64,000 nucleotides of DNA from Minutocellus sp. GHC0000111. Its lineage: Eukaryota. The position numbers and the translations under genes were made by a program. The DNA is taken from the NCBI GenBank assembly GCA_977018835.1, contig OZ361260.1:806001-870000 (forward strand), written 5' to 3'. The notes beneath the pieces were generated by a model. The model had not been told where the DNA came from. It did no database searches and was given only the letters and a program-made list of their open reading frames with translations. Shown here piece after piece: positions 31,301 through 64,000 of this stretch; position 1 is the stretch's first letter; the number at the start of each line of letters is the position of its first letter.

Positions 31301-34300
31301 CGGTCACCGGGGGCAAGATGATTCCTGACATCGTCACTGCCAGCCTGGATGCGGAGAACCGATGCATCGCGATCGACGCTCACCAGCACATTACGAATTG
31401 CCTTGGTTGCCGCATCACGAGTTTGAACCGATATGCGCCCGGTATTGCTCAGATCAAACAGAGACTGCTCAAGAGTGGTAGAGTCGGCGGCATATGGTAT
31501 TGGTGCCGTTGGCTCGCCGTCAATCTCTAGATGGAATGTCCCCGTGAGTGGTAGTGATCCCTCTACGACATTGGCGCTTTCAACCAGCGCTAACGATCCT
31601 CCAAGTGCATCGGCATCAATGCTTGGCGAATCAATCGAGCCGCTTCCTGGGGGGAAGGTGACACCATTGTAAATGCCAGGATTCTCCAAAAAGTAAATCT
31701 TCCATTCCAGTCCACCCCGTGTGGGTGTGGTGCTTGTCCCATCGACGGCAATGTCGCCCCAACCACCTGACAAACAGTCCGGAAAGCAATCTCGTGTCAC
31801 GTGAACCTTGCCCACAGTGCTCATTTCAGATAGCTTGGCGGCCAATCTCGAGGCTGATTCGTCGTACGCGACCTGTCGTGGCCCCGAAGAAGAGAAGTAT
31901 CCATGAGGAATGATCCCCGACAAACCTGACGAACCCTTTTGAATCTCATTGACAATGGGAGTACTTGTGGTGCCTCCAGTATCAGATGCCTGCACAACAT
32001 GTAGCAAAGGAACGTCGCCGGCACAAGGAGGTGTCTCACTAGGATTGCCAATAAACGTCAGTTCCCACTCGATGGCGCCGTACTTGTCCAAAACCGTTCG
32101 AGTCACATCGACCTTCCTCTGGGAAGTAGCCAAGATGTGAGCCGCAACCTCTGCTGGTGATGCATCCCACGACAACGTCGCAGCAGTGCCTCCGCCGACC
32201 CCATCACCGCCGTCATCAAATGCAGTGAAATCACCACGCTGAACGACGCCATCGACACAATCAGAGCAGGTGGTGCTGTGAATTGTCCCGTCGGATATAC
32301 TTTCAACGATGACTTGTTGTCCCATGCCAAAGTCATTGGCGCCGCCAACACTGCCACAGGTTCCAGGAGCAAAGGATGCGGTAATGGGAGGGAAATCCCC
32401 AGCGTTGTAGATGCTAACGTAGTAGAGAAAGCCATTGGGAGCGTCCACTTCGGATCGAATCCTTTCCACCTTGACCACACCTTGTTCGCTACTACTGCTA
32501 CTTGTATCGGCATCGAGCACGGCTTGAATTTTGGTGGCAACATCATCTGCCTCAGCATTGTGCCGAATCCAATCCGTTTCAATACCATTCACATGCAATT
32601 TGAACTCGGCAAATGTGTCGCTCGCGGCAACGACCGACCCATCGGCCCAGCCCAGGTAATTGGAGTCCATCACCCGAATGAGTTGCCGTTCCGCCGATCC
32701 CATTGGTCGGACACTGTTGGCATAATCTGTGGCATCCATGACGACTAGCTTGGAACACTCGCCTGGTCGCTCACAGCTTCCGCTCAGACCACCGACATCG
32801 CAAAATGAATCGGCACTGGTGGTGCTACTAGTACTGCACAACTTGGGCACATTGCCCGGTGCATTGCACAATCCAGTACCATCGTCCTTTTGCTGACACG
32901 GACCGTCCACATCGCGGAGAAATTCAATGGTCCAGGAATAGCCGCCGTTCCTTGGATTGACAGCGCTCCGAGTTACCGCAATGTCGCCAATATTGTCGAG
33001 CTGCTCGAGCCTTTCTTCCATCGATGACCCATCGCCGCCGCTTTCGATAGCCGATGCCGGGGCGTTGTGAGCAATCATGTCGGTACAAGCGGTGGTCTCC
33101 ACACTCATGACGCCGTTGGAATTCGTCCCAGCAGAGTCGAGACACAGTTTGAAGCCACCTCCAATCGGGTCCGTACCGCGTACGAGCTCGGCGACCGTGC
33201 ATCCATTGCTGGGAAATCCACCATTCGTTGTGGAAAGACCCGAATCGACACATTCCATCATTGGCACGTTACCGACATTTTTGCCCCAGGCCTTGGGAAA
33301 CCCCGACGATTCCCATACATCGTCATGGCTCGCAGAGGCGGCGATGGAGGGACCGAACCAATTGCCTGGCACATCCGACAAATCGTGAGGCTCCGTGGAG
33401 TCCTTCCACATATTGGAGGCAAAGGTGACGGTCCATACGTAGCCGCCGACCTGCGTGCTGCTGCCGCTACTTCCATCGGCGGGGCCGGTCCTGATGGGTT
33501 CGGGAGTACGTGAAACGATGACAGCGGAAGGTGCAATGGAAGTCAATTGATTCAAAGCAGCTTCCACATCCTCGGCGGATGCATCGTGATTGATGGGACG
33601 AGTCGTCTCGCCATTGAAACGAAGCTGAGAGGTTCCACGAATTGAGGTGCCCCGAACGCTCTCCGTTACAGTTGCTACGGCGCCTTGGCCAATCAGCGAG
33701 GATGCTGTAGGAACGTATGTCAGGGACGCAACGTCCCCTCCAACGTCTTGATGTTGAAAGATGACTGTGTACGCATAAGACATCCATTGTGTGGGAGTTG
33801 GAGATCGAATGACATGGATTTGGTCGGGCCTGCCGCCAAAAATGTGCTGTGTGAGGAGTGACTGCATATCCGCAGCTGACAACGCCATAAATCGATTGGC
33901 ACCCGAACTACCGGTTTGGATTGCAAATATACTCGCCGAAGGAGATACTGCCGGGTGGCGAAGATTGCCATCCCAAGACAAGGCAAAGGATCCAGCAACC
34001 TGGTTTCCATCGCGAGATGTTCCTGGGTCGTCCATGGAAAACGACGCGCTATTGTGTGCACCCTGATAGACATCGGCATCGCCAGAATCCTCATCAGATA
34101 CCTCGAGCTGCACATCGGAACCGATGAGATTGACACCACCATCGGTACCGAGAGCTGGAATGTTACCGCCACGAGAGGCAAAGGTGATGGTCCAGGTATA
34201 TCCACCCGATCACCGAAGCTGCGACGAGGGGACATAGGGCTCACGGGAAACATTGAGGGTCCCAAATACGCGACTATCGCCATCCGTAATGGCCTCCAGC

Positions 34301-36594
34301 TCCTGCTTGAGAGTGTTGGCATCGATATTGGCAGAAAGAGAGCTGGAAGTGTAAGTTCCCGGCATCTCCACCTCGTACTCGTGGGGCCAAGTGGTCGAAA
34401 GAGAAAAGGTTCCATCAATCATTGACGATTCCTGCACGGTTTCAACAGAGCAGGTGACATCCCCCGAGATGGTACTGCATGACATTTCGTGGACAGATCC
34501 GGGCTGTTTCTCAAAGGTAATACTCCAAACAAATCCAATATTCGCTGAAAGGTCTGGAACAAGACGTCTTGACACTGCGATGCCCGTGGAATCGATCACA
34601 GACAGACCACCCAGCTTTCCCTCCCAATCGGTCTGAGATATCGACGCTACCTTGGTTCCTACATCAATGGGCAATGTCGTGTGGACACGAGACGCAAGGC
34701 AGTGGCTGCTCACACCCGTTCCATCGCCATCAGCCTCGTCCCAATCGGAATGATAGGTGCCATACTCCACGTCGGTATAATCTGTGCTCGGTGGTGCGGA
34801 GCTCTCCAGTGTGATTTGGTCGGCAGCATCGTCAATGGATACAATCTTGCGATACAAGTCAATGCCATCGCCAGAGCTGAATCGAATGTGCTGGCCTTCC
34901 AACATTCCATCGGTGAAGGCATCGTCGTCAAACGCCGCTTCTGTACCCGAGACAGACGTCGACATGGTAAATCCACTGCCAAGCCTAGTGATGCTGGATT
35001 CGCATTCGTAATCCAATGCTACCAAGCCATTGGGCTGACTGCCCCTGACGGATTCTACAGCCGTATCCGACGCCGAGTTCTCATAAAAGTTGCCATGGTT
35101 CAAATCGGCCGCCGACCCGGTGGGCGTCACGCAACCCTCAGTGAAGTAGGCACTGGGACACATGGTTGTGGTGTAGGAGGTGCTCGTCGTATCAATCTTG
35201 ACTCCACTGTTGACGATTGTGAGCGGTGTGACATCGCCGCTGCTATGATGGGCATCGAATTCAATCGCATACAGAATCTCGTATTCGCCAGAGCACGTGG
35301 CCGGTCCACCTCCCGACGAATCCAACGTGCACGATCCCTTGGTCTTGATGCGACCTGTTCGAGTGACCGTGACGCCCGTCTGCTTGCCTGGCATGCCTGT
35401 TTCCGGCCCAAAGGTCATAAAGGGCGTGCCATTGTCATCAATCATTTCGTTAATGGCCTTCTGCAACGTTCCAGCGTCACCCTCGGTCGCCAAAAGCGAT
35501 GCTGCGCCACCTGGTGTTACCGGCGTCGAAACGCAATGATCACCACCCATTGAAGGATTGGATACGAGACCAGGAGTACAAGAAATAACGCCGGCCGAAG
35601 GGACGTACTGTGAGACGGCCTCCTGGCAGAAATTCGCTCTGCCACCACCATCATTGCCACCGCCGCATTCGTCAAAATCAAACGACACCGTGAAGGAACC
35701 AGACAGCGCCTCCTCAATGTCCTGGCAGGGCTCTCCCACATTGACGCCGTAGCAAGCTGCACTGTTGATATTGCCACCGTCGGTGTTGATGTTGGAAATC
35801 ACAATCCCAAGCCGTTGCACCTCGTTGACCCGTTCCACCGATGCTGTCACCTCTTGAATCTCGGGAACGTCATCGCCATGTGTTCGCACGAGCTGGATCT
35901 CATCGACGTCGTCGGCCAGTATGGCAATGATCTGCTCCTCGTCAGTATCCACTGCCGTGGTGGTTACAGTCTGTACTTCTGCCACAACGTCATCGGCCGT
36001 CGTCGTTACCACCTGAACCTCATCAACTCCCACCACTGTCGATCGGACCGATTGTACTTCGTTGACCACCTCCACTGTGGCTCGGATGGCTTGGACTTCG
36101 GGCTGGACATTGGGCGATTCCACCACGACCATTTGCTTCTCCCTCACCACGGACTTGGTGACGGTCTGAGGATTGTCGTCAAAGGCAGGAGACGTATCGT
36201 ACTGCACATTGTATCTGTCGATGGCACTGCCACCATCCAATAAAGGCGTATCAAAGTCCACCCGCAGTGTGCTGTCATCCGAAACAGATACAACATCAGC
36301 AAGGGTGGGTGCATCCGGTGTAAGGTCATGAAGCGGCCCGACTTGCACGGCATCGCTCGTTTTCGACGCGCCTAGCTCATTGAACGCCGTGAGGCGCACC
36401 GAATATCGAGCGCCAGGGTCGAGGATTGTTGCTTCTGCTCCCGTGATGACATTTCTGCCTCCGAGGTGGTAACTTGTCGCATCTCCATCGATGGTGGTGG
36501 AATAGACGAGCCTTTCGTTGGTGGGTGACGAAGCGCTTGCTGCATGCACTTGCGCGAGGAGAAGGAAGGCAAGGAGCTTTTTCATTATTATCAT
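25367..36594 (-). CDS. Giant FN3 cluster gene C (~3700 aa), interrupted by one in-frame TGA (34210-34212) and frameshifts near 28213, 27937 and 26828
   Basis: Signal peptide MIIMKKLLAFLLLAQVHAASASS. ORFs 34210-36699, 28183-34113, 27881-28117, 26440-27948 and 25367-26776 read as one continuous repeat protein across the lesions (e.g. QLR*SGGYTWTITF). Confidence 0.75.
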
Positions 36595-37102
36595 GGCGCC
36601 ATTGGCTGTGTATTCTAGCAATACGTCTTCCCCTCTTGCGAGAGAAGAATGTACGATGGTGCCGACTGCAGATCTTGGTCGGGTTTTGTGATTTGTCATT
36701 TCAGTGTCACATCATGTGTCGCATTCGATTCGCGCCTCTTCCGCCGACACATTCATTATTTGCAGATGGCGAAAAGAACAAATAGATGCATGCACTAGCC
36801 AGCTGCACAGCTGCATGCTGGCAACATTTAGCACACTGCTTCCAGTCATCTCCTCGGCAGGCATCATCACAGTCATCAGGCTCTCTCGAGTGAGAGTTGC
36901 CATCATCATTGCTGCAGGCGAGCGAGGCGTGCAATTGCCTTCATTCGCCGGCCCGGCCGTTTGCGGTGCGACTTAGTGTATGCATTCACCCAAACCCACA
37001 AGTCAAGCTATGGGTAGTGACGCTAGTAAAATTCACCGTGCTACCAAAATGCAATTCATGACAACTGACCCCACCAAACTACTCTACACTATGTTGAGTT
37101 AA

Positions 37103-44203: not shown

Positions 44204-47200
44204 CTAAGCAATACAATTAGTACCGGTAGATGGAATGTTGAGACTTAGACTCGATAGATAGCTCCCGACGGTGTCCCAGGTCGCTCTTGCCCAAGCCAAC
44301 ATGGCACCGGTACCGCTCGTCACGGTTGCCTCAAACTCTGGTTTGGTGGGCAGCTGGAGAGCTGCTCTCACGGGCGAACCCGATGCCTCGACCGAAGAAC
44401 TCCAGCCATAACCATTGTAGCACGACACTCGAACATGCCGTGGCATGGATGCCGAATCCTCGTCAATCGAAATGATGTACTCGTTTTTGCCACCATCGCC
44501 ATCACTAGTAATGCCCTTACTCACAAAGACATGAAAGCCTGGTGAGGAGGCATGGTCGAAGGTGTCCGTAATATCCCACTCTACTCTGTATTTTTCAACA
44601 TCTGATCCTCCGTCATCATCGGGATCTTCCCATCGAACCAAGATTTTGGTGGCTGATAAGGGCATGACCTCTACATTCAGAGGGGCATTTGGCGCCGTCT
44701 TTGATGCTATTGGTGGTGGAGATGCCAGTCGCGAAGCACCGTAGCCTTGGGTGTTCCCGGACCGAATGCTAATAAATAGTGGAGTGCCCTTGGATAAATC
44801 TTGGAGCGTAAGCGATTGTTCCGAGGCTGCCACCTCGATTCGGCCATAATCGTCTCCCTGAACACCGTCTACAATTGACGCTACCCTCGCCCTGGCATTG
44901 GGTCCATTCAGCATTCGGTCATTGATTCCCATGAGAGGTATGTCTCTGCCGTCGCTGCTATCGTCATTGGCATCCACAAAGGTGACAAACCAATTGAAGC
45001 CCTGGGCGTTGCTGTACCTTGTGACCTCCACGGCACCAATACCATGTAAGCTTTCGAGGGCAGCCTTGATTTGGTTTTCGTCTGCATTCCATTCCAACGG
45101 CTCGGTCTTTTCTCCTCCAAAACTCAAATGGAACGTTCCGCTCATCGGTGCAAGACCTCGTCTTGTATGGTGGACAGTGAGAGTTGGATTGTCACCGGCC
45201 CAATTCTCGGCCGGCTCCACCTGTAATAGCGGCTGTTCGCCAATGTGACTCTCGAACACAATCTGCCATTCATACCCATAGGCCCACTTGGACACGTGTG
45301 CTTCGCTTGAGGATGGGCCCGCATAAGCTTCATTCAGAGCGAAGGAAGTTGGGTTCACAGTCGCTACCGTATGTTGCTCGCCTCCAACGATCACTATGTC
45401 ACCAGCAGCAAATAATGACGTCAAGTCGGCTACACTGCTCGCGCCTCGCCCAACATTGGAACTCCCGGTCGTAAGAACAAATACTTCATTTTGGACTGGA
45501 CGAGTAGATATGTCTCGGTTGACTTCCACATTTCCAATTGTCGACAGGCGCTTGAGCTTGGATTCGATTGAATTCTTGCCATCGGCCAATGAATTGTAGG
45601 CGATGGGCTCTGTGCGTTCTCCCTTGAAGCTGAGGGTGAAGAATCCGCTTATGCTATCACTGTCAGCGGCCGAACGAATGGTCTGAACATGAACAACTCC
45701 TCTTGTCGACGACGTGGTGATCTTTTGCACTTCCCTCACGGTTGGAGTCGAGTAGTATTCAATTTCATATCCCAATAGCTCGTCGCCGCTGCCACTGATG
45801 CCACCGTCGTCCAAAGTTGGAGGTGAGAGCCAGGATACGTCCAGCGATGTACCGTGGGAATCGGGCGGAATGCTTACATTGACCATTGCAGGGATTCCAG
45901 GCTGAGACATGGGGGCGGCCGAACAAACAAAGGAGGGCTTGCTCCAGCCAACTTGATTTTGAGCAAATACCCGAGCGTAGTATATCTGACCTTCTGTGAG
46001 TCCACCAATGGTGTATCGTAGAGGTTCCGTTCCCTTGACATTCTCAAAGACTTCGATGGAGGTCACGGTGGGTTCTGAAAGCTGAGCATCGACTATTCTC
46101 AGTAAGTCAATATCACCGGCGCCCTTTCCGCCCTCGTCGATCAAATGAGTAAAGGTGACGATCCATCCAGGCTGTCCATTGAAATTTTGACTCTCTACGT
46201 TGACGGTATGGATAGTCCCCAGAGCCTCCAATGCCGCCTTGACATCATCCTTCGATGCCGACACATCAATTGCATCCGTCGTTTTGTCCTCAAACATGAG
46301 TCGAAATGTTCCGGTAAGCTTAGAAGTGAAGCCAGGTAGCTTCCTTACGTAGACAGTCTGAACCTCATTGGTGAAGGCTCCAGGATAGATGTCGGCAGAG
46401 CCGCCGCCACCAGGATCCCCAACCACCTCTTCCACCCAAACATGAGCGTTGCCGCCATATAGCGAGTGCCCATCGGCCACCAGCTCGCCGAGATTACCAG
46501 GCACATTCGCAAATGTCACCAACCATCGGTATCCAAAACCTTGTCCTCGGCGACTCACTCGAACAGATGTGTCAGTACTGCCATCGCTATTCGCAATCAG
46601 AGCTGCAATTTGCATCTCAACTTCCGGCGCCGTTGCATCGGTAGCAATTGGATCTGTGGTCTTGCCACCCCAGGAGAGGGTGAAGGTGCCATGGCACTTC
46701 GTTCGGCACGACAATACAATTTCTTGTTGTTCAGATTGTGCCGTGATCTCATCAAACGAAACATTCTCAAAGTTGATGGAAGTCGACCATTCGACCTTGT
46801 ACTTGCTGATGGTGGCGCCTCCATCATGAGCCGGTGGCTGGTACGACAAAGACAACTCGTTTGCACGATAGTAATCGCCGAGTCGAACTCCCTGGGGAGC
46901 TCCCGGCAGCATGATGCCGGGCATTGCTGTCGCTACTGTTGATGGTGCGCTGTATCCCTGATCATTGTGGGCCGAAACGCGAATGGAGTGAATTCCATCA
47001 TCAACGTCAGTTGGAACTACTTACTGCGTGGGAACTTGACCATTTGGTCCGATGGCAAAGATGCGTGCCTCCGTACCACCCCAATTTGACTCGGGTGTCA
47101 CAAAGAATTAATCCAGATCTGCGGTATGAGCCATGACGGCAAAGTTGTAGTCCACAGGACCACCCGGAACTGGAGATGGAGCTGCACTCAAAGATGATGC

Positions 47201-48571: not shown

Positions 48572-51500
48572 TCATCCACCTCCTCTCGTATTGATGCGAA
48601 TGCGCACAACCTTGCTCGTTCCGAAGGACCCATCAAACTCCGAATTCCACTCCACCTTGTAATGATCAATGCCATCTCCCCGACTATCGGGCTGAGTAAA
48701 CGTCAACGCCGTCTCGGTATTCGATAGAACCTTGGCTGTCGCCACTGGGACGTCCGGAACTGACCTCGCTCTCCTCGCACTTGGAGCCTGTGTCCAGGTT
48801 CCGCTGCCTACTGAGTTAACAGCAGCTACTCTCGCCAAATAATTTCGACCTTCCTCGAGGTCATCGATAATGGCATGCAAGGAAAGTCCAGCACCCTTGG
48901 TCGTCTCTGATATAGCCAGAGAAGTCCCCGGCGATAAATCATCTGTGCTGGCCACAAGGAGAGGAACATCCCCATTACTATCAATAAATGTGATCGACCA
49001 AGTCCTTCGTGCAATGTAAATGCCATCGTTTTCCTCATCGATGCTAGTGTCCTCCCGCTCAACTTCAACAGTACCATGTACATGCGACAGACTTTGCAGC
49101 TTGGTTTTCAGATCAGCGGCAGATTCATTAGCAGAAATCACAATGGTCTCTGAATCATCGACAAATGATAGTGTGAAGTAGCCCTCAAAATGGTTGTTGG
49201 CATCGTCCACGCTGGTTGTCAAATCGATTGCCTGAACCTCAACCTTGGATTCGCTACTAGCAACTGTGTGCGTGGCGACGATGTCATTGAATGGCTCGGC
49301 ACCCTCCATGTCCGAAGCAATCTCAACGACGTAGCTTTCAACAGGAACGCTGCTCAATGGCTCGGCCCAATCCACTCTCACTGTGCTGGAAGATATCGTG
49401 GTTAGCTCTACGCTCTGAACCGAGCCAGGTACATCACTGGGAGTGATTGGAGTTACAATGGAGTCAGAGAAAGGACCCTGGAGGTCACCAGCACTATTGA
49501 CGGCAGCAACTCGAACATAATATGCGACGCCCGGGGTGAGTCCAGTAATCTCTGTGGTGGTCCTTGTAAATCTAGTGGTCGATCCAGCACTTGTTATTAT
49601 CACAATATCTTGTGTCACTGATGGGTCGTCGGCGCCGACAATCAAGTGGCCAATCGGCTGGCCTCCGTCCGAAGTAAAAGCGGGTGATGTATCGTATTGG
49701 ATCACAAACGAGTCGATGGAAGCTCCTCCATTGGACAAAGGCTCTTTCCACGAAACCGACAAGGAGCTTGCATCGAATCCGCGTGAGATGCTGATCTCTT
49801 GAGGTTCCATTGGCGGCTGGACAAAAGTCTGTATCTCGTTCTGCTGGGCGTCCTCAATGACACCACCTCCAACGGCATTGTACGCCTGCACCCGGACGTT
49901 CCATCGGTTGACGCTGGAAAGGCCTTCAATGATGGTCCAATACGTCGATCGGCCAATGACGGGCTGTGGCGAGCCCTTTGTGACCTCACTTACAGATGCG
50001 TTGGGGTCGCTCACCGTCACTAGCGGAACATCTCCTCTCATGGATAAAATTGTGATGAGCACCGTATCACCTGGTGCAATTTCAGTGCTACCGCTACTAC
50101 CACCCTCAGCGCAGGTAGAACACTGGACCACAACGTGACCCACGCCCGGCATTCCGCTGAGCTTTTCCTCGAGCTCATCGAGAGTGCCTTCCGTCGAAAT
50201 TACATCGCTCGTTTGCCCTGCCAAGCTGACGGTAAAGTCGGACGTTCCAATGACAATTTGCTGCGTCTCGGGTTTTGAGGCACCATAAGCCATGGCGTTT
50301 CCTCCGCCAGACAATGACGATGGAACGCATGCTGTCCGTTGAAGATCTGTACATTCCTGCAAATGCGTTCCATCAACCTTGAGCTGATGAGAGTGTCGAT
50401 TAGAACCAAGCCAAGAGGAATAGCGGTAGTATCGATCGCCTGGATCTTCAAAGGTGACAATCCAAGTATAGCCCTCTGGATTCATGCAGCTCTGCGATTG
50501 GTTGTCCCCGCAGTGCAGGTGGCGAGATACGGAAATTTTCCTGCTGCTGCTGCTGCTGCTACTGCTGTCATCGGCCGACACTGACACTGTGCATAGCTCT
50601 TCCAGAGCTTCTTTCACCAATTCGGCCGTGGCATCATGTGGAAGCTGCTTTGTTGTCTGACCATCGAAACTGAGAGCAAATGTTCCCGACAGGTACTTTG
50701 TTGGGCTACCGCTGCCACTGCCGCCGTCGCTCATTTGGATGGTGACAAATTGCACATCCGAAATGCCTCGACGATTGGAAGCAGAGATTGTGGTCGATCC
50801 CAAGGCGCCATTGTTGATGCCACTGCTGAACGTGGACGATGTGTCATATTCCACCTTGTAGTGAGTGACTGGGCTGCCACCATCCTCTGTCGGTGCCTCC
50901 CACTGGACTAGAACCTCGGTATTGGAAATGGCCTGGGCATAAATATGATTGGACGCCGATGGCGTTTGAAGAGATAGTTCGACGGAGGATGGGTTGGATG
51001 CAGCGTATGGACCCATGCCAAACGAATTGACTGCAGAAATGCGAACGTAATGCGGAACTCCCGATGTGATGGACGGCACCGCCACGTGCTGAAGACCAAC
51101 GATGGAAATTGACGGATCGACATGCGCCGCCATGCTCTCGCCATTGATGGTCATGGGCAGTAGAAGTGGCTCGCCACGAGTAGTATACTGTCCTTCCACT
51201 TGTACGTCTCTCGTATCAGCAAAGGTCACATCCCAGGAATATCCATTTCCGTTGATGCTGCGTTCTACGTCCACCTTGCATGCCTGGGATAGATTCTCAA
51301 TGGCCGACTGGACGTCCATGGCCGATGCATCAAAGGGAATCTCTTCGGTAGTCTGAACTTTGTAGAGGGGGACAAACGAGATGGATTCCTGGGCAATGAC
51401 TATCGGCTCGAGATCATTCCTGAATTTGCCACCCGCTTCGCTGTCGCTGGAAGCTTCCAAGCAACCATTCTCACCCACATCAATGACTTGGAGAGGATGG

Positions 51501-54500
51501 ACGTTGCCTCGCACATTATCACCGACAAAAGTGATGATGTACCTGACTCCGGCACCCGTGACGCCTGCTTCATAGTCGATGGATTCTCGGCTCACTTGAA
51601 CGGCATCCACGCCCGCGAGCGTTTCCAATTCTGCCTTCATTTCCGAAAGATCTCCATCCCATTGCAGACAGCCCTTGGCACCGCCCGCAGTGGTTGTGTC
51701 GGTGACTTCGGTCCCAAATCGCAATCGAAAGCCAGAGACGATGTCACTGCTGGGGGTGAGACTGTGAGAAGATTCCTTGGCGACAATTGTGATAGATTGG
51801 ACCTCGTAGGTTGAATGCTTGAGCGACTCGATGGAAATGGAAGCATCGATGCCGGCATCATGGACTGTACCAAGTGGAACATTTTCGGCATCAAAGGCTC
51901 TCGCGGGGTTCGTCGATATACGAAATGTCTCGCCATCATCAGGGTGACCTACGCGGACCAAGTCACCACGAGTCAAAATGTTGGAAATGTCGTTTGGAGA
52001 ACCTGCAGAATCGATGGTGTTGAGGTTTGAATCTCCCAACCTCGGTTGCTTGGCGCTGCCCAGGGACGTATCAAGCACAAAGACTGGAGCGCGGTCCGTG
52101 CCAATGCTTGTTTCATCAACATCATGCGACAAGACTGCCGCGGATGATGCGAGAGTCCAAGCGTCATCGCTGGAACACAGCGGTAGATTGGACTCATCGT
52201 ACGGCAAATCGAGGGCGGCATCCAAACAAATGCGATACTCGTGATGTCCAATTCGGACATAGTCGCCCCGGGGAACGGCAGCGGCAAGATTGTCGTCGCC
52301 TTGGATTCGTTCGGCCACAATTCCTCCTCCTCCTTCTTCTCCTGGCTGGGTGGTGATGCGCACAAGGGTCGCCCCGTTACCAATAGATGACAAGTAATCT
52401 CCGTGAAAATCACCCAGAGACAAAGTGAAGGTAGAGGTGGAATCCCACGGCAGACTGTGAGCGCTGGAGCTGATCCGTTGGATCCGATGATCCAAAGCCT
52501 TTTGAATGGTCGTAGAATTCTCAAAGTTTGGAGATGTGGCCGCTTCGATGATGTAGTGACTAATGGGAGCACCGTTGGATTCTGCTTGCTCTTCGTACGT
52601 TACAAGCAGAGCCTCCGAGTTCAGTGGTCTCACACGAGGAGCTGGAGGAGTTCCAGGAACTTGTCCAGGCGACGCAGCGAAGGGCACAGTGTCCACGGCA
52701 AGGCTCGATCCTCGATCGGCGCTGTTGGCACGGACTCGAGCATAGTACGGCACGGCGGTATCGAGGCCAGTAATGTTGACGACGGTCGTTGCTGGATCGG
52801 AGATGGTGATTTGAGAAAAATTATCGGGTGCAACGCCCTCCACTAGCTTCGACGACCGGAATCCAGCCGGATTGTTGGTTCCGAGTAATGCCTCGGTATC
52901 GACCAGGAGCGATGGCTGTGGGCCAACGTTGGTAAGGAACGTAATGTACCATTTGTACCCACCCTCGTTTCCAGCGGAGCCGGCATCTTCCCGCCGGACG
53001 CTCACCTGGCCAACGGAATCCATATTCTCGAGAGCAACCTTGAGATCGTTAGCCGACACATCGTGCGGTAGCCTTGAAGACTTGACTCGGGTAAAGGCCG
53101 TGGCCGTTTCATCTCGGGCACCATCAAAGGGCTCCGAAAGGGGAAGGACCGACGACGTAAAGGGTCCGACATTCGACACAGTGTACGCCAGGCCATTTAT
53201 TACCAAATCGTCTCCTCGTGACAATAGAGGGGTAAGATCTTGCGTCGTCGCAACAACAGTCGCCCCTGGAACAACCTCAACGGTTCCTGGCAAGGAAAGT
53301 GTCGCCTCATCACCAAAGTAAAGATGAAACCATCCGCCCGTCAATCCCAGTCCAGAAGAATCCAGCTCGACAATCTCTGGAGTGCCAAAGAAGCTAAATG
53401 TTGGACCAACCTCATGACTTCGCGTAAAGTATTCGACGGTGTAGGAGTCAACGTCAATGAGAGTATGATGATTGCTGCTGTCGTTGCTGCTGCTGCTGCT
53501 GCTGCCTTCCCACTCTACCTGCAGCGTATGTTTGTCGACAACACTCAACGATGCGGAAAAGGGTGGAGGAGGCGCCGCTCTGGGAATGGCGCTGGCGGGA
53601 AGAGTCTCCTGAGGCAAGCCGGTGCCCATTTCACCATTCTCGGCAGAAACTCGGACATAATATCGCTCATTGGGGTCCAATCCCTCAATGAGATACTCGG
53701 CACCCAGCACGGTGAGGTCTGTTGCAACCACGTTTCCGCTTCGGCTATTCATTGATTCCAATGAGGAGGCACGCAAATGATCTGCATCGACCTTGATTTG
53801 TGCGTTGGATGCCGACACAATCTTGAAGAGATAGGCCGTGTTGTCGCTGAAGTAAACCATAATCTTGCGCTGCGGATGGAGAAGTCGTTGCATTGCATCA
53901 TCGCCAGAGTAGGTGAAAGTATTGGTCTCGGCATCAAATGATGAAACGCAATTGCTGCAAAGAGCTGCCGAGGAAGGATTGTTTTTGTCATCGCCCGCAA
54001 CTATCGCCGTCGATACGACACTCGTCCTTGCCGACCCAAGAGCAGATCCATCCGACGCAGAATCAAAGGTCGGTGCCTTATCCCATTCTACCACAAAGTA
54101 TGTCAACGGTGCACCGCCATCGTACGTGGGAGGTCCAATCTGAACAAGTAGCGACGTCTCCGACCAAACGCTTAGATGGGGTGGTGAATCTTCGTGGAAC
54201 AGTGATACCGGAAGACCGGGCTTTTGAACGGGCGGGGCAAGGGCAGCGGGAGCCGTTAGTCGGCGAGAACTCAAACCCAATCGATTGCCAGAGGACACTC
54301 GAACAAAGTACTGCTGTCCAGGAACAAGGTTCTCAATAGTGTAACGGAGAGGAACTGACTGTTCGTCAAGATTGGCGATGAGCTTACTGCCATAGGCGGC
54401 ACCCAGAGGAATGCTTCCTGCCGCGATTTGAGTCACCGTCACACCTCCAGGCAAAACGGCATCCGTTCCAGCATCGCGAATGGAATGGCCACTGACAATG

Positions 54501-57500
54501 TCGATGCGATCGACATTTCCCACCTCGCTCAAAAAGGTAACTCGCCAAGTCATGGGCGATGCCAAGGTCACTGCAACGTCTCCTACATTTGGCATGTTTT
54601 CCAACAGTGTTTCCAATTCCTGAGGAGAGATGGAGGCTGGAATGTTGGCACTGAGGTGGACACTACCATTGTTGTTGTTGTCATCGTCGTTCGCTGCTAC
54701 ACCACTGTCTGTGAGCGAATTGCTGGTGTCGATGCTCACTCTAAATTCGCCCTCCACGTTGGTGCCCGTAAGCGTTGAATCTCGGAGTGCTACTTCCCAA
54801 AGAGTTGGTGTATAGGCATCCCAAGGCACCTTGCTCCACTCCACCAAATATGACGTGATGGTATCACCGCCATTTCCAACCTCGTCCGGTCGACCGTTCT
54901 CCGTATCAATCCTGGGAGCATCCCAATCCACCAACAAGGACGTTCCAACGTCATCAGAATCGTGAGAATTGATGGATAGCATGGACAGTGTTGGCGAATG
55001 CGGAGGATCGGGACTGGTCATGGGCTTGACGGGCAATGCGGTCGAGGGCTCTCCGTAGCCACCACTGTTGTGCGCAATAACGCGGACGTGGTACTCTTTG
55101 CCCATGGTGAGACCTTGAATCCAATACTCGGTCTCGGACGTGACGTGAGACTGGATATTCTCCGTGTTGTCTTCCAACGAAGAAGAGGGGGAGGTGGACC
55201 ATTCAATCCTGTATTTGTTGATGGCGTCGCCACTTCCACCACTCGCATCACTCGACGAAGGCTCGTACGATACCAAGAGCGAGTCCTTGGTAAATCGGTT
55301 GGGTCCATCAGAAGCCAAGGGATATGTGGCCACCGTCACCTGCGGTGGTTCGGGAGTCGATCGGGCAAAAATGGCGAATCCTCCACCGTCTGATCCTAAC
55401 ATTCCATTCCACTTTAAGTGACGTGGACGAATCCGGGACGGCATAGACTCGACAATCCTGCGCCAAGCCTGGAGATGATTTGGGTATCTCAACCGGGGGA
55501 GACGCATCGACGAAAGGTCCGACGCCGGCACTGTTGATCGGGGCGATATCGACGTAGTACGATGTACCAGGGACGAGAGAACTGGCATCCATTTCAGTTT
55601 TAACTACAATCGAAACATCACTGGATGGCATGCCATCGACCTCAAAGCTACTATCGCCATCGCCGCCACCTCCACAGGACGCGTCCGACCAGGGTTCGAG
55701 ACTGGATACCACAAACAACTCGTCAACGTGACGAGAGAATGCCGGGCCTGTAAATGTAACATGATAACTCCAACTACTGTCGCCACCGCCACCGCTACTT
55801 CGAGAGACGATAATGTTCTCATTGAATGGTGAATTGTCAAAGTTGAGGCCAATGTGCGTCCTCATGTCCTCTGCGGAATGATCATTGACGAGATCAAAGC
55901 AAGACGTTGGTGGGGTGATATAATAGGCTTGGACAGTAGACGACTCGTCACCAGCGGAGCTGATGCTACCGCCAACCATCCCTCGATATTCGGACGACAG
56001 TGTCAAATGGCTCTGTCCAACCGATTCCACTTGGTATAGCCGATTATCTCTGCCCTCGTCGTCAACATCGTCACCACCAAAACGAATAAAGCGACAATCG
56101 ACGGCGTCGCTGACAGGGACACAATTTCCACCACCGTCGATCCAGGAGTTGGCTGCTTGACTGTGATTGGTCGACTCTGTGGACCAACATACACGACCTT
56201 GAATGAGCCCGCCGTAATACTACTACTGTCCTCTGCAACAGGCTCAATTGCAATGGTCTGAACCTCGGCACCAATCTCCAAAGAGCACGCGTCACCAGGG
56301 CAGCATAGCGTCGGTGATCCATCGCCCGTGATCATCCTGGCGTCGTATTCCATAGGTGATGACATGGAAGGGCGGGTGTCCCAACGAATGCGATACAAAG
56401 AGGCAGCGTCGGGCGTATGGCCGGTATAAGTACCACAGGCATCCAACTCGGTCACGAAGCCTCGTTCGTCATGAGTCGGCAACGACCAATGCAAATCAAG
56501 ACGATCTGGGACTTCCGATGCTGATACGGAGAGATCAACCGACGTGGCAATGTGGAGTGGCACCTTGATGGGCACCGCGGATGCTGGAGTAGCGGAAATG
56601 GCATCGGAATACCCTTCGCTGTTGTAAGCCGAAACTCGCACATAGTACTGGGTGCCCTCCTCCAAACCCTTGATCTGATACGACAGGTTGGCACTATCCA
56701 CCACTTGCGATCGTACCAACGGTCCGTCGACAATGTTGGAATAGCTGTTGGTCGTCGACACGCGGCTATTGTCAAAGCGATACGTTTCATCCCACTCCAC
56801 CAAATACTTCAATACTTCGGATCCACCGTCGTGGACAGGTGGGTCCCACGAAACTCCAAGCTCCGTGCGGGATACCACCGAAAGCTGCACATTAGCTGGC
56901 CCTGATGGATGCGTTGCAAAGGGCTGAACAATCATTTGACTTCCAGATGATGATGATGATGATGATGAGGAGGAGGAGGAGGAGGAGGAGGCGCTAACTC
57001 GAGCATCCTCTACCGTGGCTACGATGCCATCTCCCAAGTTGGTGGAATCAACAACAAGTGACACATCATCACCACCATCGCCATCACCGTCGGCATGCCC
57101 CACAAAGGTAATGCGGTAGACCATTTTGAACGGTGCCGTTCCCTCTCCCGTATTGTCAAACACGGTGGAATGGTCCTCTCTGGAAACAGTGACCAAACCA
57201 ACCCCATCCAAGGCATTGAGGGCATCTTCGACATGTTTGGCCGTGGACAGTACCGACAAACTTGGCGTGCTTTCGCTTTCCGACCCATAAGTGAGATTAA
57301 AGGATTCCGTCAGGTCGGCTGCACCGTCCGAATCGGCCAGCAGTGTCAGCTCTTGCACCTTTCGATAGGAATCCAACGGCACAGCATCCCCCACATCTCC
57401 ATACCCAGCACTCTCACATAGTACGAAGTACTGGGATCGAGGTTGGCAATGGTGTAGCTGTAGCTGTCACCATTGCCACGAGCTGGAACAGTAATACCCT

Positions 57501-58323
57501 CCTGACCAAAGGATGCATCGGTATCCCACTGAACCGAGTAATGCGTGACGATCGTGTCTTCGTTTGGCTCGTCTGGCTCGAAGCTGTCACTATTATCAGT
57601 GTAACGACGAACAGGAGGCGCCCTCCACGAAACTCCCAGTTCGGTATCAGACACTGCATGGACCGATACGTGAGTTGGTGCCAGGGGAGTCTGCTGCGTT
57701 TCCCCCTCCTCGTTGACGTCATCACCGCCATCGTACCCAATAGCATCTGCATCTGCATCTGCGTCTTCCTTCCATGTCGTCACGGCAACCATGGCCGAGC
57801 TTCCCGACATAGTTCCGCCCGTCGCAGCCAGAGACGGCAGAGCGATGCCAGTATCCACCAACATTGACGGTGGCTTCAAAGACGACTCCAAAGGTAATGC
57901 CACGGTCCACTCCATCCCGGGCGAAGATAGAGGCGGGACGGTGCTATGGACCAACCGTCGGGCCGTCACGTCCACGGCGTCAATGGTGGCCATGCCCTCG
58001 AGTGCCGCCTTCATTTGGGCTGCCGTGGCATCGACCGAGATCAGGTCGGACGATTCGCCCATGTAGTGGACTGCGAACGAACCACTCAAGTCCTCTGCCG
58101 AGGCGGTAGCTGTAATGTACTGGACGTGTTGGGGGTAGTGGTGCATCGTAATACTCGTCGCATTGCCGTTGATGGCTGCCTCCAATCGACGCGTGCTGCT
58201 ACGTGTATTGCTACTCGCACTTGGCGTTACAGCACCAACATCAACAGCAGAAATGTCAACACCATGGATCCCACCGTAACATAATGCAGGACACAATAGC
58301 AACAGCAGCGCGCAGAGGATCAT
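48572..58323 (-). CDS. Giant FN3 cluster gene A (~3250 aa), frameshifting deletions near 57410, 56090 and 55400
   Basis: Signal peptide MILCALLLLLCPALCYG then an RRL motif. ORFs 57346-58323, 56003-57394, 55308-56030 and 48572-55588 continue the same FN3/EVQ repeats across frame changes. Confidence 0.75.
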
Positions 58324-58658
58324 CTCGCTTCAGCCTTTGCGTTGGCCGCTTCGGCTGGACCAACAAGTGCTGGCCTGGTGCTTGCGTTTCGAGTGTGCGC
58401 ATCATCGAAAACTCATCTTTTAAAAAAACATTCAGATCAGCAGCCGACGTACTGAAATAGTTTGTAATCGCCGTTCACCTCTTTCCTCGTTGCTTGCCCA
58501 TCACTTCATTGACTGAGATGCATGCCTTGAGCGCATGCGCATCGAGGAGACATCGATGCAGATGAGGGCAGATGCTTTCTTTCTGACACAGTGGCACGTC
58601 AAAAGATTTTTTTGGCGGGCCCGCCAACGAGAACCCGTACCATCACTGTCAAGCATTG

Positions 58659-60155
58659 ATGCCACAACCACCCCTGACCTCCATGAGGAATAACATCAGC
58701 AGCAACAACTATAATTACAACCGAAATCTGCTCTTCCTTCGCCCGTGCTTCCTTCTGTGCCTCTTCCTAACGGCCATATCCTTCGTCCTAAGCGAGATGG
58801 CACCTACCTTCCTTTCCAGATCCAACAACAAGCGCATCGCATCAGCCTTTGTCGCCCAGCACCATCAGACCGGCAAGACCGCACCTGCGCCTCCTCTATC
58901 GTCTCACACGAGCAGTAAGAGCGTGGTGAGCGACACCGCCAGTAATAACAACGACCTGCACCCAGCCGTATCCCTGGCACGCGACCTGATTCAAATCGAA
59001 TCTATAACTCCCAACGACAATGGGTGCCAACCGTTGATCGCGTCGCGTTTGAAGGCCATGGGATTCCACTGCGAGACGATGCAATTCCACGACGTTACCA
59101 ACCTGTGGGCCGTGCGGAATGCCGACATTGTCAACGACAAGGTGGGCACGACGGCCCGTCCACTTGTGGTGTTCGCAGGGCATTCGGACGTCGTGCCAAG
59201 TGGGCCCTCAGATGATTGGACGCATCCACCATTTTCGGGGACGATTGAAACTCACACCTCGCTCAACACAGACAATGAGGTGGTATCTACCGAAGAACGA
59301 TTGTATGGACGAGGTGCCGCCGATATGAAGGGTGGCATTGCGGCGTTTATCACGGCCGTGGAACGATTCGTAGAGGCCCATCCCGAACATAAGGGCAGCA
59401 TCGCTTTCACGAGCGACGAGGAAGGACCTGCCAAACACGGCACCAGAGAGGTGGTCGAGGAGTTAAAGCGAAGAGGTACCGAGATTGATATGTGCATCGT
59501 AGGCGAGCCATCTAGCCAATATATCCTTGGTGATGTCATCAAGGTTGGACGACGAGGTTCCCTATCGGGCGAGCTCATCATCAAGGGAATCCAAGGCCAT
59601 ATTGCCTATCCACGTTTGGCTCGAAATCCAATCCATGAATCGTTGGCAGCACTCAACGAAATGGTCCAGCGCAAGTGGGACGATGGCAACGACAACTTTC
59701 AGCCTACGTCTTTTCAGATCAGTAACATCTTTGGGGGTACTGGTGCAACGAATGTAATTCCAGGAAGCAAGACGGTGAAATTCAATTTCCGCTACAGTCC
59801 CGAGACGACGGATACTGCCCTCAAGGAGTGGGTGGAGGGCATATTGACGAATCATGAATTGGACTACGAGATGAAATGGGGCGATACAGCGTATCCATAT
59901 GAAACGACGAGAGACAATGCTTTGGTTCAGGCGGCACTGGCAAGTGTGACGGAGATCATGCCCGGCGTCGAGCCTCGGGTCTGCACGAGCGGTGGTACGA
60001 GTGATGGACGGTTCATTGCCCCGATGGGAGCGCAGGTTGTGGAGTTGGGACCGCTTTATGCCACCATTCACAAGATTGATGAGTGCTGTGCTACGGCAGA
60101 CTTGGAGAACCTATCGAGGATATATGAGGCATTGCTTGGGAGGTTGCTACTGTAG
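58659..60155 (+). CDS. dapE: Succinyl-diaminopimelate desuccinylase (M20A), bacterial-type, with N-terminal targeting leader
   Basis: FAGHSDVVP, GRGAADMKGG, TSDEEGPA, VGEPSS, GRRGSL, GIQGHIAYP, PTSFQISNI..GTGATNVIPG, TSGGTSDGRFIA, ELGP..ATIHKIDE; intronless; hydrophobic leader and IASAFVAQ. Confidence 0.9.
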   Translation: MPQPPLTSMRNNISSNNYNYNRNLLFLRPCFLLCLFLTAISFVLSEMAPTFLSRSNNKRIASAFVAQHHQTGKTAPAPPLSSHTSSKSVVSDTASNNNDLHPAVSLARDLIQIESITPNDNGCQPLIASRLKAMGFHCETMQFHDVTNLWAVRNADIVNDKVGTTARPLVVFAGHSDVVPSGPSDDWTHPPFSGTIETHTSLNTDNEVVSTEERLYGRGAADMKGGIAAFITAVERFVEAHPEHKGSIAFTSDEEGPAKHGTREVVEELKRRGTEIDMCIVGEPSSQYILGDVIKVGRRGSLSGELIIKGIQGHIAYPRLARNPIHESLAALNEMVQRKWDDGNDNFQPTSFQISNIFGGTGATNVIPGSKTVKFNFRYSPETTDTALKEWVEGILTNHELDYEMKWGDTAYPYETTRDNALVQAALASVTEIMPGVEPRVCTSGGTSDGRFIAPMGAQVVELGPLYATIHKIDECCATADLENLSRIYEALLGRLLL

Positions 60156-60855
60156 GAACTGTAAGGGTGTAGCGAGCTAATGAAAGAATAGAGGCAAATC
60201 ATAAAGCAATGGCATTTGTTACTACTGCTACAGTAGATGTTCGACTTCTACTCTACTTTCAATGATCGACCATACTTGCCGATTTATTCCTCGGATTCCT
60301 CGGGAGGTTGAAGACAAAATGTCAACTTTTCGCTCCCACCATCATGATCGTTCCATGGCATTTCCATACCGTAACTAGCATGGTAGGGTTCAACCATCGC
60401 ATGGGTGAGTTTGTGGAGGAATATTCCTCGATGCTCTATTGTAGAAGCTCAGTCTCCCATCGTCATGTGTGTCACATTCCTTGAACGAAGGATGCCTTTG
60501 GGGCACCATGCTTGGGAACTGCGACGATGGTGATCAGCAAGCTTTCCGTAACGGGAAGTGCTGCATCCCAAAACTCTGGATTTCGGTCTCTGATCTCATG
60601 ATTTCAGAGTGAGTAGGTTGTTGTTGTTTCTCCTATTTTCCCTACGTAGCTACGAGTAGGAGTTTCATGATGGCTGGCCACGCTGCCAGCAGCGAGAGGC
60701 CTCCATGCAGAAAACTGAAAAACGTGAGAATGACATCGCAGAAACTCTTCGAGGAGAGCTCACTCATCAATCGCCACAGCACGGCCAGCCAGGGAGGCAA
60801 CGAGGGCGCTCAGAGCGCCTCGCCTCGCCGCACCTGCGCTGCTCATACAGCGGGG

Positions 60856-63800
60856 ATGAGCACTACGAAACGCAAAAGAGGTGGAACTCCCAGGGCTGGT
60901 CCTGCGGCGGCGGCAGCAGCGTCTGCATTGCCAGCCGTCGCCTCGACATCGGCCGTGGCGGTACCGCCATCGCCCTCTGCCGCTTCTGTGGATTGGGCAC
61001 AGACCGCCACAGGGAGTTTCCACGCTCGTGCTCCTTCTGCCGACGCATCTGCATTTTGCTGGTACCGGTGGCAATATGGAATCCCCTTCTCCCTACAATC
61101 CTGCAAAGCAAGTCACACCATCGCCAAGGACAAGAGAAGAACGATCGGATACGGATAGCGAGGATAGTTCCAGCGACAGCACCAGCTCCGAGGATGATAA
61201 CTTCAAAGCTGACGCCAACACCGCCGGTGCAAGTGTCAATGTCAGCGTGGGGCGAAATCATGCCAATGACGATAAAATTTCCAACAACTGTGATCTTTCC
61301 ACTCACGTGATGGATCGGGCGGTAGATTTGTTCTCGTCGTCATCGTCCTCCAGCTCCTCGTCGGAGGATGACATGCTTGATAGCGACGACGGCGATTCGA
61401 TAACCAAAGAGGTTATGCAAATACTTGAAGAGGAAGTGCGAAGAGGCCAGGAATCGGAGGATGAGATGGGGCGAAATGTTCTGGAATCAGAGAACGAAGC
61501 AGGAGATGCTAATGACGATTCTTTCGCCGGCGCTGATGCCGGGGCTGGAAGAAATAGCAGTCCGACCTTTGAGGTGGAGCGGATATTGGCTAGGCGGTAC
61601 AATCGTCAGCGAAAGCGGATCGAATATCTATTGGCATGGAGGAGTGGCGCCAATGATCCTGCAGAGCATAGCTGGGAACCTCACGAACATTTGGACTACA
61701 GAGCCAAGGATCACGTGCAGGAGAGGTGGGGAGGTTGTCCACATATCAGAGCTTCGGATGGTATAGAAACCAACGATCCAGTCCTGGATGGACCTCGGGT
61801 GGCACAATATCGGCTGTGGGAAAAGCAGCAACTGTCCCTCCACCGGCGACGATGCAAGCCGCAGCTGAAGAAAAAAACTAGTGTGCCAAATCATGGTGTC
61901 GCTAGACGGAAAGCCCTTCCAACCCGCAACAATTTTGCAGCATCACAATTACCAATAGAGGCAGAAAATGCGAGTGCGCCTGATCGGCCGCTTGTCCCTA
62001 TACCTCGACCACTTGTGGCAGAAATTGAAACGATTGAGATCTTTTGGAAGGCAGGCATTCAACCTTTTATGTTACCGACAGATAAATGGGAGTTGGTAGA
62101 TGATTGGAGATTGATCACTGTGTATGAATGGAGGGGAGAAGTGGGATCAGACGGTGGTCTTTGCTGTGTTGGATGTCATCCGCATCGTCACTTTCCGGTG
62201 CGAACTGCGTGGAGAATAGTTTCGAGAGCGGGGCGAAGAGGGCGATCAAGAGTGAGTATTCGTATTTCATATGGCTGCATGCTTTGTTGTACCACCGCAT
62301 CAGCTCTCACCCAATTCTTTTTCAATGCTCCCCTTTTGCAGATCGACCGTCTCACTCTGGACTTTGGTGATGATGGAAGCACGAAACATACACGGAGAAA
62401 GGCCGGCACTAAATCCTCTTTGGTGACTCCGTCTCCATCAATTCCATCGCCGAGACCTGGAGGAGCAAAGCTTAAGCGCCCAAACATGAAGATGAACGTT
62501 TCTGGGGGAGGCGTCAAGCCCGGCCGTAGCTCAGGTTCTTCTCCTGTTCATGGCGCTTCTAGCGGTGTCCGGACAACCAAGGCCGCTGCTTCCTTTACTG
62601 CCAACTCCAAGTATGTTGGAAGACGAGTGTGCAAGTGCTTTGATGGCGTAATACATTTTGGCACAGTGAAGAAATATCTCTCTTCAGTCAATGCAAGGTG
62701 GGCAATTCATTATGACGACGATGATACAGAAGATATGAACAAGAGAGAGCTTGATAGGGCCATTGAGCTTTATGAGAGAAAGAAGAGTGAAGATGTGGGA
62801 AATGCATCGACGGCAAGAGAAGATGTTGACAATGGTTGGGACTTTGGCGAGGATGCTGAAATCGATGATGATCTTTCTCTACTAGTAGCGCCTCAGAAGC
62901 CCATCGGTCTGCCGCAAATAGCTTTGGAGGAAACAATTGAGTTTTTGTGGGAGAAGGGCGTATTTCCTTTTGCGTACAGCGAGAATAGGGCCGAAGTGGT
63001 GGATGACTGGAACGATTACCAGATCTTTCATTGGCACGAGGGCTCAGGGGGGGGCACTGCTATTGTTAGCTACAAATCGCATCCCAAAGTCAAGGTCCGA
63101 GTAAAATGGAGACCCATGAAGGGCCGGCGCCGAAGAAAGGTGAGTGATTGATTATTGTCTATCGGGTATTTATTTGGCGTCTTTATGTACTAGATATGTC
63201 TTGAAGAGTTAAACTTTTCTTGTTCTCTCAATGCAACAACATCTCTTTCCGACCACTGCTATAACATAGACCAATTTTCTGAAACCAGCAAAGGACGTGT
63301 CTTTGAAGAAAGCCTCTCGAGCGCAAGCGCACGCACGCCGTCATTCGCATGGCCGCGCCAAAAAGTCTGCGATCACCATGCTTGAGTTATTCAGTGGATC
63401 AGGTGTTTTGTCCGACTCTTTTCGAGAAAAAGGCGTAGAAAGCTTAACCTTGGACGATGACCCTGCGTGGGAACCAAATCACTGCATGTCAATCGCAGAG
63501 CTAAGAAAGCGGATCGAGGACGACACCGTACCTGAAGGGTTGAATCAACCAAAAGACATTGTTTTTGCGGCGCCGTGTTGGTGAGCTCACTATTATCTAT
63601 CTATGAATGCTTTCAATTTCGTCCGGCTTGCAAATTCTTGTAAACAAGGTTTTATTCGCGGGCTGGCCTCTTACAAGTATCTTTCCTTCGCCCTTTTTTC
63701 ATCAGCACAACCTTTTCAAGAGCGTCCAATGGTCGACACCGCAATGGAGAGAACCTTGGTGGGCACTCGCCAGAAGCGGAAGCGGCAAATGTAATGATCA

Positions 63801-64000
63801 ATGATTTTATTTTCGTTCTGAAATTCTAAAAAAGGCTCAATCCGAGATGTCTTATGGTAATTGAGAACCCCGCGAATTATCTTCAAGAGATGGAATATAA
63901 CGAAATATTTGAGAAAGAAGGCGATGATGAGTTTAGTCTCAAAAGGGTTACTGTCAGCTACTGTATGCTATCAGAAGAAAACAAACTGCCGCGAAAGGAC
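60856..64000 (+). CDS. Chromodomain + Tudor-like + C5 cytosine DNA methyltransferase-like protein (3' end outside window); introns 62252-62341, 63140-63269, 63581-63705
   Basis: Chromo FEVERILARR..IEYLLAW..HSWEP; Tudor-like YVGRRVCKCFDG..FGTV..WAIHYDDDDTEDM; MTase motif I LELFSGSG, IV FAAPC|CTTFS, VI IENP, VIII-like VSYC. Frameshift ~61055 (or start at ATG 61076) and in-frame TAA 63827-63829. Confidence 0.75.

Follow-up and report, generated by a model that had tools for sequence, protein, structure and literature searches.

The fusion gene and its intact ortholog

The stretch analysed here (in the following, the window) comprises 64,000 nucleotides of contig OZ361260.1 from the diatom Minutocellus sp. 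GHC0000111 (assembly GCA_977018835.1, positions 806,001 to 870,000, forward strand). At its end, from 60856 to 64000, lies one plus-strand gene, to which all features described in this and the following four sections belong. Its four exons, separated by three GT-AG introns (62252-62341, 63140-63269 and 63581-63705), join a chromodomain and a Tudor domain to a small C5-cytosine methyltransferase domain. The same layout is found in P0001, an intact ortholog from Minutocellus polymorphus.

Exon 1 (60856..62251) encodes a low-complexity N-terminus, the chromodomain and the first copy of an unnamed repeat. Its ATG matches the start of P0001, and both of its frames align to that protein (64% and 63%). 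Intron 1 (62252..62341, 90 nucleotides) is followed by exon 2 (62342..63139), which shows 67% identity to residues 481-737 of P0001. After intron 2 (63140..63269, 130 nucleotides), exon 3 (63270..63580) extends from methyltransferase motif I (LELFSGSG, 63381) to motif IV (FAAPC), with 75% identity to P0001 and a match to the phage protein family phrog_757 (E 0.0018). Intron 3 (63581..63705, 125 nucleotides) interrupts the codon of the near-invariant catalytic Cys, the second Cys of AAPCC (63567), so that this codon is complete only after splicing; P0001 reads continuously as APCCTTFS at this place. Exon 4 (63706..64000) contains TTFS, HR, IENP (63860, with the Glu at 63863), VSYC (63953) and the start of motif VIII, where it is truncated by the window end. 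Because the gene extends past that end, motif X is visible in relatives only.

Eight of the twelve public sequencing runs that contain this stretch were aligned to the window. Six of these are RNA, among which X4 and X5 represent one sample (depth 2.7), while X9 and X10 retain the introns and behave as DNA. Intron 1 is spliced out in contigs of X1, X3, X4 and X5 and intron 2 in those of X1, X2, X4 and X5 (four of the six RNA runs each); intron 3 is skipped in X2 only (one of six), in a contig whose short side measures 23 letters. In a 1025-nucleotide RNA contig of the X4/X5 sample the Tudor exon (exon 2) is flanked directly by the end of exon 1 and by the motif I exon (exon 3). An earlier note, made from the sequence alone, had proposed three canonical introns, had named the motifs LELFSGSG, FAAPCCTTFS..HR, IENP and VSYC, and had suggested cDNA as a check of the exon joining; the motifs were found where it had placed them, and the intron borders together with RNA contigs crossing all three introns confirm the splicing.

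P0001, the only protein returned by a search with exon 3, is a complete transcript open reading frame (ORF) of 1031 amino acids. It is 66% identical to the joined reading of the window (586 of 893 aligned residues) and shows the same order of chromodomain, repeat A, DIR17-type Tudor domain, repeat B and a C5-methyltransferase domain of 240 amino acids. Since chromodomain and catalytic domain share the ORF of P0001, they are parts of one protein, as the earlier note had assumed, and not products of separate genes. The fusion of chromodomain, Tudor domain and methyltransferase is thus real and conserved in at least one other diatom. Word-based protein searches yielded only P0001, or six long proteins, and no DNA of the P0001 locus turned up in metagenome scans with P0012, a further family member (0 of 264 stretches), or with P0001 (0 of 107).

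Chromodomain, Tudor domain and repeats

The chromodomain (61568..61717; PF00385, E 2.4e-7) and the PTM/DIR17-like Tudor domain (62618..62758; PF21743, PTM_DIR17_Tudor, E 1.8e-9) both score above their Pfam cut-offs, in agreement with the chromodomain and Tudor-like domain predicted earlier. In chromodomains of plant chromomethylases (CMTs) the aromatic cage is complete. When the P0001 chromodomain is aligned in sequence to that of CDYL, at the positions which we take to form the cage, Phe244 and Trp267 are kept and the third position is Leu270 versus Tyr in CDYL. The chromodomain of the window gene possesses the first two aromatics and a Gly at the third position, which is occupied by Cys in P0006. 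In the Tudor domain several aromatic positions are retained across 11 aligned members; its comparison with solved structures gave no meaningful match.

The unnamed repeat is rich in Trp, about 80 amino acids long and present in two copies in the window gene (A, 61997..62227; B, 62900..63124). It occurs also in P0004, P0010 (twice) and P0026 and has no match in Pfam or Atlas. A likeness to Tudor domains seen by eye was rejected: the comparison of its profile with the Tudor profile of the family scored 7.5, and shuffled profiles reached up to 10.3.

A compact catalytic domain related to phage enzymes

The best family for the catalytic domain of P0001 is phrog_757 (E 6.8e-8, profile positions 10-168 of 247). 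On PF00145, the general C5-methyltransferase profile, P0001 reaches only E 0.0035 over 74 amino acids, which is under the cut-off, and no NCBIfam model covers the family (0 of 5 proteins). A tblastn search of phage genomes returned 28 records, mostly Bacillus phage DNA methylases, with about 28% identity. An AlphaFold model of the P0001 catalytic domain, built on an alignment of 113 rows, has a predicted local distance difference test score (pLDDT) of 96.7; whole P0001 folded as a single sequence gave 34.5. The nearest folds to the domain model are small viral proteins (template modelling (TM) score 0.76; Tetraselmis virus 1, TM 0.64), and DNMT3 and DNMT1 match it at TM of about 0.5. With the sub-threshold PF00145 match, these results support the earlier view of a compact phage-type enzyme rather than one of the DNMT1/3/5 type.

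Among solved structures DNMT3B was the top match (Z 14.8, root mean square deviation 3.9, 201 aligned residues, 12-14% identity), but DNMT3, DIM2, MET1 and M.HhaI reach practically equal values (Z 14.0-14.8, 9-13% identity). Every one of the 16 best structural matches is a C5 cytosine methyltransferase. The S-adenosylmethionine (SAM)-binding motif I (F-x-G-x-G) reads LELFSGSG in both the window gene and P0001. In the 46 rows chosen from the long clade described below, the catalytic Cys is present in 42 and the ENP Glu in all 46. That motif I, Cys and Glu are so strictly kept indicates that the family is an enzyme, and the modelling shows a predicted C5-methyltransferase fold that carries SAM motif I, the catalytic Cys and the ENP Glu. 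The whole catalytic unit comprises about 212-240 amino acids and is without a large recognition domain. Cys931, Cys966, Cys970 and His980, which recur in 46, 44, 39 and 43 of the 46 rows, respectively, form a predicted zinc site.

Viral contigs often carry stand-alone relatives of this domain (572 of 600 and 578 of 601 stretches examined), and prokaryote genomes contain them sporadically (156 of 168 stretches); their median lengths are 212 and 220 amino acids. Sixty of the 150 ORFs flanking them at 26 viral loci were analysed. They include three terminases and eight other DNA methyltransferases, which argues that many of the viral relatives are genes of tailed phages; a link to phage TET clusters was not seen, with zero TET matches among these ORFs. 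On four viral contigs (L243, L260, L261 and L301) the compact gene adjoins one or two other C5-methyltransferase genes, and on three (L246, L256 and L293) N6/N4 methyltransferases. Viral scans with the P0001 domain itself (0 of 20 stretches) and with its subclade (0 of 12) gave nothing. The typical phrog_757 relatives are stand-alone intronless genes of viruses or prophages, unlike the window gene with its three introns, its host neighbours and its ortholog of 1031 amino acids.

Relatives and their distribution

A search of all cluster representatives returned 334 proteins at E up to 0.001, and the best 150 of these were analysed. A first tree of 123 of the 151 rows, from which 28 short or misaligned rows had been excluded, separates a group of 56 rows, mostly short, from one of 67, mostly long. 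After addition of 22 viral and 14 prokaryotic rows, the 46 chosen long-clade rows stand on one side of a branch with a Shimodaira-Hasegawa-like approximate likelihood ratio test (SH-aLRT) support of 99. A further 25 viral rows, found with the long-clade alignment, also fall outside the long clade, and no viral or prokaryotic row lies within it. The trees are unrooted, and the long group was first defined from the 123-row tree.

Of 58 relatives picked for their length, 17 possess a DIR17 Tudor domain (12 above cut-off), three show weak matches to other Tudor-like domains, two a chromodomain, in one case outside the long clade, and one a CXXC finger. P0066, on the stand-alone side of the tree, represents another chromodomain fusion, a weak one at 24.6 bits and slightly below cut-off, which suggests a separate fusion event. 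Organism names were obtained for five of 21 proteins looked up by cluster and for one from the word-based search. All six are diatoms (Minutocellus, Mayamaea twice, Epithemia and Bacillariaceae twice). The two long family members P0033 and P0107 carry consecutive locus tags of Mayamaea pseudoterrestris (MPSEU_000170600 and 170700). The window gene belongs to an apparently undescribed, phage-related clade of reader-fused C5-methyltransferases.

Frame-breaking alleles in the window species

The reading frame is broken at two sites in the window. In a T run at 61054..61057 the window is one base longer than X1, X2, X9 and X10, and X4 and X5 agree with the window. Because of the extra base at 61054 the reading from the ATG at 60856 stops at 61156; an in-frame ATG at 61076, after the frameshift, could allow a restart. 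This lesion comes in addition to the one named in the earlier note, an in-frame TAA (63827..63829) between motifs IV and VI where Tyr was expected. The stop codon is indeed present, in the window and in X9, and Tyr (TAT) is found in other alleles (X1, X10), in protein P0012 and in the ortholog. It is allelic, and an inactive copy is probable. Two further breaks are absent from the window and seen in the runs only. An A run (A7-8, 61871..61878) is one base shorter (61878) in X2, X6 and X9, so that the frame would end at 61956, and a G8 run (63047..63054) is G7 in X1, X9 and X10, so that it would end at 63102, before the methyltransferase. An assembly error of the window as the cause of the breaks was rejected, since for both the TAA and the extra T a public run shows the same state, and the other two breaks are confined to runs.

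At least one frame-breaking allele was found in seven of the eight runs; X3 covers none of the break sites well. Of 14 coding substitutions, one of which (61006) may be an alignment artefact, 12 are non-silent. Neutrality lets expect 72-77%, and a dN/dS of 0.3 gives P 0.002-0.007. They include a Gly to Glu change within the Tudor domain. The simplest reading of these data is a gene that was recently relaxed and is still spliced. From the frame-breaking alleles in seven of eight runs we conclude that the window copy is probably decaying, that is, a still-transcribed pseudogene. P0012, which carries the Tyr allele of exon 4, is unlike all its close relatives downstream of the first C-terminal Cys and is without motif X. 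The cause may lie past the end of the window, in another lesion, a retained intron or an assembly fault.

Neighbouring genes

Directly upstream of the fusion gene lies dapE (58650-60155, +), encoding succinyl-diaminopimelate desuccinylase (above the NCBIfam cut-off). Its product has an N-terminal extension with an ASAF motif, which we take to resemble a diatom plastid-targeting signal. A TTG microsatellite between both genes (60594-60662) is longer in X9 than in the window. On the minus strand, very long ORFs of up to 2343 amino acids that are rich in fibronectin type III domains (21201-36711, 44204-47020 and 48572-58329) possibly represent one or two giant surface-protein genes.

Comparison with described methyltransferases

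In the size of its catalytic domain the window gene resembles the compact enzymes of phages and giant viruses in the phrog_757 class, such as the 'C-5 cytosine-specific DNA methylase I' of the Bacillus phage Bcp1 type and the putative cytosine DNA methyltransferase of Tetraselmis virus 1. They share LELF.G, P-x-C, HR, IENP, YC and K-x-T-x-x-W-T-N with the window family. They differ in being intronless, about 212-220 amino acids long and without reader domains, at about 28% identity, and the diatom proteins form a branch of their own. To the DNMT3 catalytic domain the family is linked by the top match among solved structures, which is within 1 Z of DIM2, MET1 and M.HhaI. Differences are K-x-T instead of R-x-R in motif VIII and the lack of PWWP and ADD domains in the window family.

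Plant CMT2 and CMT3 and the haptophyte CMT-like proteins also unite a chromodomain with a cytosine methyltransferase in a single protein, and for them, too, a link from histone marks to DNA methylation has been proposed. CMTs are of the DNMT1 class, however, with a BAH domain and with the chromodomain within the catalytic region, whereas P0001 has no BAH match and its chromodomain lies about 490 amino acids upstream of motif I. The CMT ZMET2 matches the P0001 domain model at Z 12.5 with 9% identity. In the available rows of the diatom survey of Hoguin et al. 2023 (PMC9998398) the chromodomain of the haptophyte CMT-like proteins is placed between pieces of PF00145, after BAH. The convergence with chromomethylases suggested earlier consequently holds as a functional analogy only and does not extend to the architecture.

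Nine diatom DNMT4 proteins with an N-terminal chromodomain are described in the accessible parts of the same survey (PMC9998398), and these share with the window gene the position of the chromodomain upstream of a C-terminal C5-methyltransferase. They differ in a full-length, RID/DNMT1-related PF00145 domain, typically over about 250-340 amino acids in the rows seen, compared to the sub-threshold 74 amino acids in P0001, and the window gene combines its mini domain with a Tudor domain and two repeats. For Minutocellus the survey gives DNMT3 and DNMT6 only, under other identifiers, and the P0001 identifier is absent from the 22 of 23 supplements covered by a term search. As far as these parts of the survey go, the gene stands outside the described diatom DNMT clades, as the earlier note had anticipated.

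Lineage-specific eukaryotic C5 methylases were reportedly listed by Iyer, Abhiman and Aravind in 2011. The orphan eukaryotic DNMTs and ChloroDNMTs of Sarre et al. 2025 (PMC12344493), in the portion available, are lineage-restricted and regarded as laterally acquired, some of them from viruses. ChloroDNMTs have gained a reader (PWWP) like the window family, while the orphan DNMTs are described there without companion domains. Minutocellus is absent from the table of that study, whose threshold according to the same portion is PF00145 E < 1e-4. P0001 (0.0035) and 56 of the 58 long relatives fail this value in hmmscan (two reach it), so that such a search would miss most of the family, and the published surveys likely missed the gene. 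A description of the family was found neither in the accessible parts of PMC5890265, PMC11244446, PMC3145265, PMC8256090 and bioRxiv 10.64898/2026.05.21.726589 nor elsewhere in the openly accessible literature searched, a scope that leaves aside subscription papers and bioRxiv supplements.

Weighing the explanations

We regard it as somewhat probable, in sum, that the intact form methylates cytosines under the guidance of chromatin, with a phage-type mini enzyme as its catalytic core, while the copy of the window species is a decaying, still-transcribed pseudogene. According to this scenario a phage-type methyltransferase gene would have been taken up once by an ancestor of these diatoms and would then have gained introns and chromatin-binding modules, namely the Tudor domain in most members, the chromodomain here and CXXC in another. 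Tudor, chromo and repeat domains would anchor the protein to nucleosomes, where the small catalytic domain with its predicted zinc site might methylate cytosines in the vicinity, de novo and with little sequence preference. A bolder version, which we put forward only tentatively, holds that diatoms possess an unrecognised lineage of phage-derived cytosine methyltransferases whose active site contains K-x-T and whose recognition domain is replaced by a tiny Cys/His module, and that this lineage radiated by fusion to Tudor, chromo and CXXC modules; chromatin-guided DNA methylation would have been invented independently here and would be disappearing in the window species.

Several observations weigh against the scenario of a chromatin-guided methyltransferase with a decaying copy in the window species. 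The span from chromodomain to catalytic domain is not covered by any single contig of the window species. Alleles were called without a control gene from RNA contigs that are shallow (depth 3-8) and can mix haplotypes, and near-identical paralogs could pass as alleles. Since the trees are unrooted, the direction from phage to diatom is only inferred, and the assignment to diatoms covers the six named relatives, most of the others being without organism name. The three-residue aromatic cage is incomplete by sequence alignment in the chromodomains of both the window gene and P0001, and no ligand of PF21743 was found in the two papers that name the domain, including the available part of PMC11836899. 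A report of activity for the compact class was likewise not found in the openly accessible literature. Finally, motif VIII is K-x-T and not R-x-R in 105 of the 107 readable rows (of 151), in phage and diatom proteins alike, and in canonical C5 enzymes encoded at the same phage loci R-x-R precedes Y-W-T-N. In Dnmt3a both arginines matter for base flipping and catalysis, R200K retaining 4% and R202A 12% of the activity (PMC4802922, as far as accessible).

This exchange makes ordinary DNA methylation chemistry of the family less certain. It may instead be a SAM-dependent, Cys-catalysed enzyme that does not write 5-methylcytosine in DNA but acts on another substrate (RNA, single-stranded DNA or another pyrimidine) or by another chemistry and is brought to chromatin by its modules. 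The small catalytic unit of about 212-240 amino acids without large recognition domain would fit to this as well as the missing arginines. Yet motif I, P-x-C and ENP are near-invariant, all 16 best structural matches are C5 cytosine methyltransferases, and other DNA methyltransferases are frequent neighbours of the phage members (8 of the 60 flanking ORFs). In addition, the register of K-x-T on R-x-R is weakly supported, as it depends on W-T-N as an anchor and on a profile alignment that is itself weak (E 0.0016), and the conserved His-Arg after motif IV might supply the arginine instead. We consider such a deviating activity unlikely, though the most serious of the alternatives. Somewhat less probable still is that DNA is methylated but the N-terminal domains bind nucleic acid or a partner protein, so that the analogy to chromomethylases fails. 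This would be in line with the third cage aromatic, missing in both orthologs and Cys in P0006, and with the lack of a PF21743 ligand in the literature accessible to us, and on the same grounds the guidance by histone methyl marks postulated in the earlier note stays hypothetical. On the other hand, the same catalytic domain is repeatedly combined with varied chromatin-type modules (Tudor, chromo, CXXC, Agenet-like), and several aromatic positions of the Tudor domain are kept across the 11 aligned members.

The remaining alternatives concern the locus and its origin. The two breaks in the A7-8 and G7-8 runs, both lengths of which are seen across runs of different studies, and the continued splicing could point to a gene that does not decay but is switched on and off by changes in run length like a bacterial phase-variable methyltransferase. 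But the other two of the four breaks (the T3/T4 run and the TAA) are no slippery tracts, and missense changes, including the Gly to Glu exchange in the Tudor domain, accumulate at a neutral rate, which makes switching very improbable. Slightly less credible again is a joining of chromodomain and mini methyltransferase inside a chromovirus-type retrotransposon, with the gene as its domesticated or dead remnant. Retrotransposons with chromodomain and DNMT have been described (bioRxiv 10.64898/2026.05.21.726589, available text), but the published EpiLTR DNMTs group with DNMT4. The window gene, moreover, has three introns and host dapE directly upstream, and no reverse transcriptase or integrase match was obtained in P0001, the 58 long relatives or 14 long ORFs of the window. 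That the gene is simply one of the described DNMT4 proteins with N-terminal chromodomain, as host group and domain order might suggest, is next to impossible in view of the extent of PF00145 in the DNMT4 rows and the Minutocellus entries of the survey (PMC9998398, in the parts cited above).

Significance of the reader-fused family

According to the accessible parts of the diatom survey, DNMT3, DNMT6 and most DNMT4 proteins are without chromatin-binding domains, and the link between histone marks and DNA methylation is unexplained (PMC9998398). The members of a reader-fused family that stays below the usual Pfam threshold are direct candidates for this link. As the window copy appears to be breaking down, it matters less here, and the intact ortholog of M. 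polymorphus is the one to study. If active, P0001 would demonstrate that a minimal phage enzyme can become a chromatin-targeted writer and that C5 methylation is possible without the arginines of motif VIII, and its C5-methyltransferase domain of 240 amino acids would be a compact tool for epigenome editing.

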